A stretch of 365 bases of DNA from Escherichia coli (lineage in GTDB: Bacteria; Pseudomonadota; Gammaproteobacteria; Enterobacterales; Enterobacteriaceae): the NCBI RefSeq assembly GCF_003334385.1, contig NZ_QOWN01000189.1; one strand, written 5' to 3'. A model generated the notes under the pieces. It was not told the origin of the DNA. It did no database searches and saw only the letters and a list, made by a program, of their open reading frames with translations. Position 1 is the stretch's first letter. Every line of letters begins with the position of its first letter. Of this stretch, positions 1 to 365 are shown in pieces. The position numbers and the translations under genes were made by a program.

Positions 1-365
1 GCGCTGTTGGTCGCCAGGTAAAGATGCGGGCTTAACCGGATATCCGGCGGCAGCGCCCCCCACAGCCGCGCCAGCGTGTGGCCGTCCGGCTGCGCTGCCT
101 TACCACCGCGCACCAGCCACATTGACTCGCTGCGGCTGTACACCGCCTCCCCCGGCAGCAGCGGCTCAAAGTGAATGCTCCGCCCGCCGTTGTCGTTGAG
201 TACCAGTGCATCATCGCGTAGCTGTAAGCGGATATCAGAAGGCGCTTTCCAGCCGGGGCCAAACACTCCCACCGGCGCGGGTGTCCTGGTCCGGTAGCTG
301 CTGTAGGTGCGGGAGAGAATGAACGGCAGCGGGCCGGGCAGCGCAAGGTCCGTCTCGCCGGGCAG
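1..365 (-). CDS. rhs: Internal fragment (partial at both ends) of an Rhs-family protein gene, covering the conserved N-terminal region upstream of the YD-repeat core; in-frame codons run from + position 365 down to 3
   Basis: Seen in sequence: this minus-strand frame has 121 consecutive sense codons with no stop, while the other frames I translated (minus frame 3 and all three plus frames) contain stops. Third-codon-position GC is about 79% by hand count (25 of 121 codons end in A/T) and CTG dominates for Leu, as expected for a real gene in a GC-rich enterobacterial-type sequence. The translation reads as a plausible protein rather than the Arg/Cys/Trp-rich product of an off-frame read. Established knowledge (from memory, not searched): the stretch LPGETDLALPGPLPFILSRTYSSYR...GPGWKAPSDIRLQLRDD...NDNGGRSIHFEPLLPGEAVYSRSESMWLVRGG...LSPHLYLATNS closely matches the N-terminal region of E. 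coli-type RhsA/B/C proteins. Paralog cannot be assigned, so the symbol is given at family level only. Confidence 0.8.
   Translation of the reverse strand, partial: MPGETDLALPGPLPFILSRTYSSYRTRTPAPVGVFGPGWKAPSDIRLQLRDDALVLNDNGGRSIHFEPLLPGEAVYSRSESMWLVRGGKAAQPDGHTLARLWGALPPDIRLSPHLYLATNS

Follow-up and report, generated by a model that had tools for sequence, protein, structure and literature searches.

The G+C-rich Rhs core fragment of Escherichia coli as a probable legacy of a GC-richer background

Introduction

Why does a stretch of 365 nucleotides of Escherichia coli DNA (the window, by which the whole stretch analysed is meant) hold so much more G+C than the native genes around its copies, and is this excess being kept up or is it being lost? 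The initial annotation, made by hand count, gave roughly 245 G+C (about 67%) and about 79% GC at third codon positions (GC3), and exact computation returns 245/365 = 67.1% (C 124, G 121, A 61, T 59) and, in frame 1 of the minus strand, a GC3 of 79.3%. It also held that Rhs cores are known to be GC-rich, as is indeed stated by Jackson et al. 2009 (PMC2935791), who describe Rhs, after the Hill laboratory, as a G+C-rich core of ~1200 residues with an A+T-rich core extension (or tip), and who report 67.7% GC in the core versus 46.4% in the tip of a Serratia locus. That E. coli obtained its rhs genes from another source was proposed, according to the papers that cite this work, by Wang, Zhao & Hill 1998, and rhsD is counted in the literature as one of the 20 strongest compositional anomalies in K-12.

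That the Rhs core of E. coli is G+C-rich has been recognised from the 1990s onwards, and the window represents an ordinary part of this core. What is added here is (i) a division of the excess into two halves, (ii) the observation that Rhs cores elsewhere match their hosts in composition and (iii) erosion of the excess at native per-site rates. These results support the old interpretation by horizontal transfer and argue against a special process that maintains GC.

The window and its host gene

The only stop-free frame is minus-strand frame 1, with 121 codons (GC1 0.678, GC2 0.537, GC3 0.793), and on the plus strand each frame contains 2-4 stops. Translated in this frame, the window matches positions 58-178 of the NCBIfam RHS_core equivalog profile (NF041261) with 253.7 bits (E = 3.5e-75), the curated cut-off of 2000 bits being beyond the reach of such a fragment alone. 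At the DNA level, many complete E. coli genomes contain genes with 100% identity to it, under the annotation 'RHS element core protein' or 'rhsD'; profile match and identity together bear out the Rhs core assignment proposed at the outset. A second open frame of 104 aa (window 32-346, minus frame 2) was discarded, being rich in Arg, Ala, Cys and Gly, without family match and of the spurious type that is typical of GC-rich DNA.

Specifically, the window (1-365, minus strand) comes from the interior of an Rhs core ORF that belongs to the rhsD/E subfamily; it is open throughout and corresponds to gene nt 172-536, that is, codons 58-178 plus 2 nt. Positions 168-365 (minus strand) belong to DUF6531 (Pfam PF20148; window translation residues 4-66, E = 4e-15), a domain whose whole extent is protein residues 46-123 (E = 6e-19 when the first 400 aa were scanned against Pfam), the window beginning at residue 58. 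The remaining positions 1-167 (minus strand) encode core residues ~124-178, between DUF6531 and the first RHS/YD repeats; they are covered by the RHS_core profile, and the Pfam scan of the translation found no separate domain in them. This part is nevertheless conserved among enterobacterial Rhs proteins, with the motifs SRSES-WL-RGG and LATNS recurring in a protein alignment of homologs, which was seeded from a search with the 121-aa fragment whose matches are nearly all short pieces of enterobacterial proteins, several with frameshifts.

The genomic context was read from E. coli C and from genomes with identical or near-identical copies of the window. The E. coli C gene with the identical copy is 4224 nt long (L001 16313-20536) and scores 2777.4 bits over positions 1-1261 of the 1261-position core profile. 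Its YD/RHS repeats lie outside the window (TIGR01643 YD_repeat, 156 bits; Pfam RHS_repeat from residue 209), and the motif that ends the core, PxxxxDPxGL, appears as PIQVIDPMGL at residues 1249-1258, with the Rhs_assc_core family (TIGR03696) at residues 1181-1258. Beyond this motif the C-terminal tips are variable between strains, and the downstream ORFs differ. A vgrG gene is found directly upstream (TIGR03361, 614 bits), and ydcD and ISAs1/H-rpt remnants are found downstream. Judged by these family matches, the host gene encodes the predicted conserved, shell-forming part of a polymorphic toxin associated with type VI secretion (T6SS), with a putative toxin tip and ydcD as putative immunity gene, the evidence for the toxin/immunity module consisting here of the gene order vgrG-rhs-ydcD and of family names.

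Similar proteins have solved structures. The shell and Rhs-associated core of T6SS Rhs effectors (Tse5 8cp6, Rhs 7q97, Tse15 8uy4, Salmonella bongori Rhs 8qja-d) match the host gene product with E = 1e-122 to 1e-55, and a PAAR-like N-terminus, the shell, the logic of a C-terminal toxin and the linkage to vgrG would be common to both. However, the best matches start near residue 290, so that residues 58-178 of the window (including DUF6531) fall outside them, and the composition of the hosts differs. Closer still is the RhsD/RhsE core of K-12 (rhsD-E of the Hill laboratory), which is of the same subfamily and shares the G+C-rich core, the PxxxxDPxGL motif, the A+T-rich tip, a small downstream ORF and ISAs1/H-rpt. 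Over the window, K-12 rhsD is only 95.9% identical (98.3% over the core), and the window is therefore a non-K-12 allele of this subfamily, its E. coli C copy lying at the ydcD locus behind vgrG.

Some peculiarities of these loci concern naming and structure. The E. coli C gene is labelled rhsD, yet its neighbours are yncH/vgrG on one side and ydcD/pptA on the other, a location that is occupied on the K-12 chromosome by RhsE (rhsE being truncated there); the label stems from automated naming by sequence similarity and not by locus. Strains 1943 and 15A23CPO013 carry, ~7 kb further downstream in this locus, a second full-length RHS core gene (L060 27055-31317 and L063 27065-31327), with a DUF3969 ORF in place of a vgrG before it and 'dsORF-h1' after it. 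In strain ECO2947 (H146, NZ_CP046259.1 204222-209017), an rhs core gene is disrupted in its N-terminal part by an IS3-family element, which leaves a separate 'DUF6531 domain-containing protein' ORF adjoining vgrG.

Distribution and host assignment

A match to the window is present in 3871 of 5426 complete E. coli genomes (about 72%), and the element is therefore patchy among strains. Within a genome the window is found in 1-8 places (median three) and the whole core in up to 12, and the best match reaches at least 99% identity to the window in 1163 records. The condition attached to the initial reading, that the host be enterobacterial, agrees with this distribution and with native flanks of 49-51% GC.

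A host that is itself GC-rich would make the composition unremarkable, and the initial annotation had named a genome average near 67% GC as the finding that would undo its claim. There is something on the surface to recommend this, as a 100% match lies on a metagenome-assembled genome (MAG) contig labelled 'Lentisphaerae', and contigs that bear the names Collinsella, Oscillospiraceae and Akkermansia contain relatives. But identical copies sit in many complete E. coli chromosomes between flanks of the composition just given, and two of the MAG contigs (L003 and L032) align over their full length with E. coli chromosomes or vgrG-rhs junctions at 99.4-99.6% identity, and are therefore mis-binned. 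A GC-rich host is thus extremely improbable as an explanation. The 'Lentisphaerae' contig, which carries the sole non-enterobacterial 100% match, was set aside as mis-binned E. coli DNA.

More generally, E. coli-type vgrG-rhs junctions turn up in MAGs assigned to Lentisphaerae, Akkermansia, Collinsella and Oscillospiraceae, where they lie on short contigs (L003 1-3462; L032 1-3574; L015; L017). Several records of the plasmid collection likewise resemble chromosomes or pieces of them, such as a 3.66-Mb record of Acinetobacter baumannii (H74, NZ_CP077849.1) and a 1.0-Mb record of E. coli (H27, CP061233.1), and Klebsiella oxytoca 'plasmids' of 2.7-19 kb with pieces of E. coli-type rhsD/rhsB (H26/H28/H85, NZ_CP069916/26/30) may be assembly fragments.

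Composition against the local background

Along the E. coli locus, the core forms a block of 3.7 kb. Residues 1-1248 have a GC of 0.640 and a GC3 of 0.769, and 100-codon bins stay within 0.61-0.69 (GC) and 0.72-0.84 (GC3), whereas the C-terminal tip has 0.407 and 0.282, and ydcD 0.273 and 0.255. The native flanking genes are at about 51-52% GC with a GC3 of 55-57%, and the coding sequences of 56 native flank genes from two loci give 0.525 and 0.572. At PIQVIDPMGL, GC drops from 0.60 to 0.43 over ~120 nt. The sliding GC profile that had been recommended as a check displays a sharply delimited block at 62-67% GC, with AT-rich shoulders on either side.

The window itself is unmatched by its surroundings. 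Across ~70 kb of native flank at two E. coli loci, none of 68,503 overlapping 365-nt windows reaches 67.1% GC (mean 50.9%, SD 6.1%, maximum 62.7%), and in the 40-kb locus of E. coli C no window exceeds 60.3% outside rhs and vgrG. The expectation that the window would look compositionally foreign in an enterobacterial host is therefore confirmed by direct comparison. Within the core, the window ranks high but not extreme, at the 87th percentile of core windows (core mean 64.4%, range 59.5-71.5%).

The vgrG gene upstream of rhs (L001 20603-22729, minus strand) is also raised, with a GC of 0.558 and a GC3 of 0.68-0.69.

Residues versus codon choice

One explanation needs no foreign origin at all, namely that the protein shell demands residues with GC-rich codons (Arg, Gly, Pro, Thr, Asp) and that the DNA merely follows. 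How far this carries can be read from a recoding, in which the 121 residues of the window were recoded 5000 times with the codon usage of the local flank. The recoded window has a GC of 0.597 +/- 0.016, compared with 0.525 in the flank coding sequences and 0.669 observed, so that ~7 of the 14 points of excess are due to amino-acid content and ~7 to synonymous choice. Amino-acid demand accordingly covers about half of the excess, in keeping with the enrichment of R, Y, T, D, G and P (K, I, F and M being depleted) and with a GC2 that is higher in the window than in the core (0.537 vs 0.490). The margin of the window above the core mean comes from these second codon positions (the window being rich in Pro, Gly, Arg and Leu) and not from an added third-position bias.

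The other half is left unexplained by residue content. None of the 5000 recodings reaches the observed GC, and GC3 is 0.793 against 0.595 expected under flank codon usage. In the same way, the distance of codon usage to the pooled flank is 0.529 for the core and 0.264 +/- 0.049 for 27 native genes (maximum 0.399), which places the core ~5 SD from native genes; the vgrG adjoining rhs is intermediate at 0.355. A preference for G-ending codons (CGG, ACG, GCG, GGG), considered as a possible signature of the core, was rejected, since G3/(G3+C3) is 0.555 in the core vs 0.596 in native genes of the same strand, which amounts to ordinary strand skew.

Rhs cores in other hosts and the search for a donor

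If GC-rich coding were a requirement of the Rhs protein, it should accompany the core wherever it is found. In a sample of 11 distant hosts with flank GC from 0.30 to 0.70, core GC follows flank GC with a slope of 0.97 (r = 0.97) and an average offset of ~+2.5 points, as obtained from one regression of core on flank GC, in which the flanks (~6-29 kb, often on plasmids or T6SS islands) serve as proxy for genome GC. Cores have a GC of 0.66-0.70 in Burkholderia, Ralstonia, Cupriavidus, Streptomyces and Paracidovorax, and of 0.37-0.42 in Acinetobacter, Bernardetia, Enterococcus and Photobacterium, with GC2 of 0.33-0.39 in low-GC hosts, so the protein tolerates AT-rich coding. That same-clade rhs genes of different genomes vary in base composition was reported before (Jackson et al. 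2009, PMC2935791), and agrees with this trend across hosts. Against it, the E. coli core is an outlier, lying +14 points over its flank (z = 3.2 for GC and 4.2 for GC3).

The synonymous-site excess and the low-GC cores of Acinetobacter, Bernardetia and Photobacterium refute the constraint on protein composition as sole cause, and it is highly unlikely to suffice by itself. The same observations support the conclusion that Rhs cores are not GC-rich by nature, and that the excess in E. coli is a legacy and not a trait of the family. When the cross-host regressions are inverted, the background that they imply for the E. coli core is 0.619 from GC1, 0.636 from GC2 and 0.613 from GC3, a concordance that points to long residence in a genome of ~62% GC and is unlike the effect of a force acting mainly on synonymous sites.

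In all likelihood, then, the GC excess is the legacy of a ~62% GC background, brought into E. coli by horizontal transfer and drifting slowly to the composition of its host. The core lineage would have spent a long time in that background, which would have shaped the residues it encodes as well as the codons used for them; horizontal transfer would then have carried it into the E. coli lineage, where it would since have drifted towards E. coli composition under the ordinary substitution regime of this species. The GC-rich 3.7-kb block of ~64% to which the window belongs stops abruptly at PxxxxDPxGL, with the A+T-rich tip and the putative immunity gene beyond. The adjoining ISAs1/H-rpt remnants and vgrG, as well as the patchy distribution among strains, lend further support to transfer.

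The proposed donor deserves separate treatment. A scan across species found no donor lineage of matching composition, but since it used two short peptide patterns, this absence is weak evidence; the close relatives that it returned are all Enterobacteriaceae with flanks of 50-57% GC, and the nearest match in a GC-rich genome has 34% amino-acid identity. Acquisition from a GC-rich donor, as put forward in the initial annotation, is therefore favoured by the implied background of ~62% GC, whereas the donor lineage itself was not found; the transfer and the GC content of the donor are what we infer from the pattern as a whole.

Within the Enterobacteriaceae the excess is smaller and uneven. The segment homologous to the window has a mean GC of 0.616 in 33 enterobacterial loci (range 0.544-0.686), ~6 points above the upstream flank, while the tips of these loci have a mean of 0.419. 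This unevenness suggests different residence times or repeated transfers.

Individual cores differ in this respect. Trabulsiella and one Citrobacter sp. (L028, L007) have cores near the value predicted from the flank, with GC3 ~0.65. The cores of C. youngae and E. albertii are still high, with GC3 ~0.77, and one Yokenella copy reaches 0.857 (L018, L005, L026).

Decay of the excess within E. coli

A legacy should erode, and a maintained excess should not. Among 10 distinct E. coli alleles, changes were polarised as singletons, that is, as changes private to one allele, with the ancestral state taken from the other nine. At synonymous third positions, 72-75 such changes go from GC to AT and 21 from AT to GC (p ~1e-7; for 75:21 against 1:1, p = 3e-8). 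Older sites, at which the change is not a singleton and unanimous outgroups supply the polarity, point the same way (35:12). Some of the counted point changes could in fact stem from gene conversion by rhs copies outside the sample, and 90 of 246 singleton states are shared with rhsB; when rare states present in any outgroup are dropped, the bias becomes stronger (41:4).

An excess of GC-to-AT changes is common among young bacterial variants, and for this reason 18 native genes of the same locus were counted in the same six strains as a control (rhs core counts were made via a codon alignment because of indels). These genes give 169:127 (GC-to-AT:AT-to-GC) at a current GC3 of 0.579, with an implied equilibrium GC3 of 0.508. 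The rhs core gives 54:21 in the same six strains (current GC3 0.775, implied equilibrium 0.572) and 72:21 over the 10 alleles (0.783 and 0.513, respectively). Per-site bias does not differ significantly between core and native flank genes (p = 0.36 and 0.95, on modest rhs counts of 75-93 polarised changes), and the core lacks the AT-to-GC fixation excess over neighbouring non-repeated genes that would mark a hotspot of GC-biased conversion. Under the ordinary E. coli regime, a core that starts from a GC3 of ~0.78 loses GC, and simple arithmetic from the counts puts the net loss at ~0.5 GC3 points per 1% synonymous third-position divergence, with an e-folding of ~0.5-0.6 substitutions per site. 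The excess of the E. coli core is decaying, not maintained.

It may be argued, on the other hand, that the GC-to-AT singletons are transient and purged, and that the composition is actively maintained, either through GC-biased conversion between the rhs copies or through selection (for instance, by escape from H-NS-type silencing targeted at AT-rich DNA). Rhs cores are classic recombination substrates. They also occur in several copies (median 3-6 places per genome), and alleles up to 8% apart stay within a GC of 0.634-0.640 and a GC3 of 0.755-0.769. Moreover, enterobacterial orthologs at ~70% identity are often still above their flanks, and the synonymous changes of vgrG are balanced, unlike those of the rhs core (16 GC-to-AT vs 15 AT-to-GC, a small sample).

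The near-constant GC3 of the alleles is, however, expected in any case, because relaxation is slow and needs ~0.5 substitutions per synonymous site. The equilibrium of the core (GC3 0.51-0.57) is indistinguishable from that of its native neighbours in the same strains (0.51), and the older sites are biased as well. A process acting mainly at synonymous sites would not predict that GC1 and GC2 are shifted as far as GC3 by the implied background, and distant Rhs loci, multi-copy as well, exceed their flanks by a mere ~+2.5 points. Active maintenance is thus an unlikely account of the excess. Similarly, there is only a slim chance that part of it is kept up over the long term, by biased conversion or by selection that keeps the core outside silencing while the AT-rich tips are silenced; if this were true, Rhs cores would represent a rare gene-specific mechanism of GC maintenance in bacteria.

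One sequence considered as a near outgroup, an allele at 81% identity (L057, NZ_CM129825.1 3675574-3679319), was excluded, since ambiguous bases ('too many ambiguous residues') and not divergence account for its low identity.

Comparison with other compositional islands

The legacy of a GC-richer background, slowly eroding, can be set beside known cases. The genomic background of Serratia marcescens is at ~59% GC, higher than that of E. coli. The clade II rhs of S. marcescens Db11 (SMA1610; PMC2935791) likewise has a GC-rich core in comparison with its tip, with a low-GC trough running downstream, the corresponding values here being 64% versus 41%. It differs in rhs clade and in host background, and the excess there is smaller. 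With the horizontally acquired compositional islands of the amelioration model, which reportedly goes back to Lawrence and Ochman, the E. coli core has in common its atypical GC and codon usage, sharp boundaries, IS remnants, a patchy presence among strains and substitution towards the host. Unlike the typical islands of that model, the block is GC-rich instead of AT-rich, and the locus is a composite in which core, tip and putative immunity gene have separate compositions.
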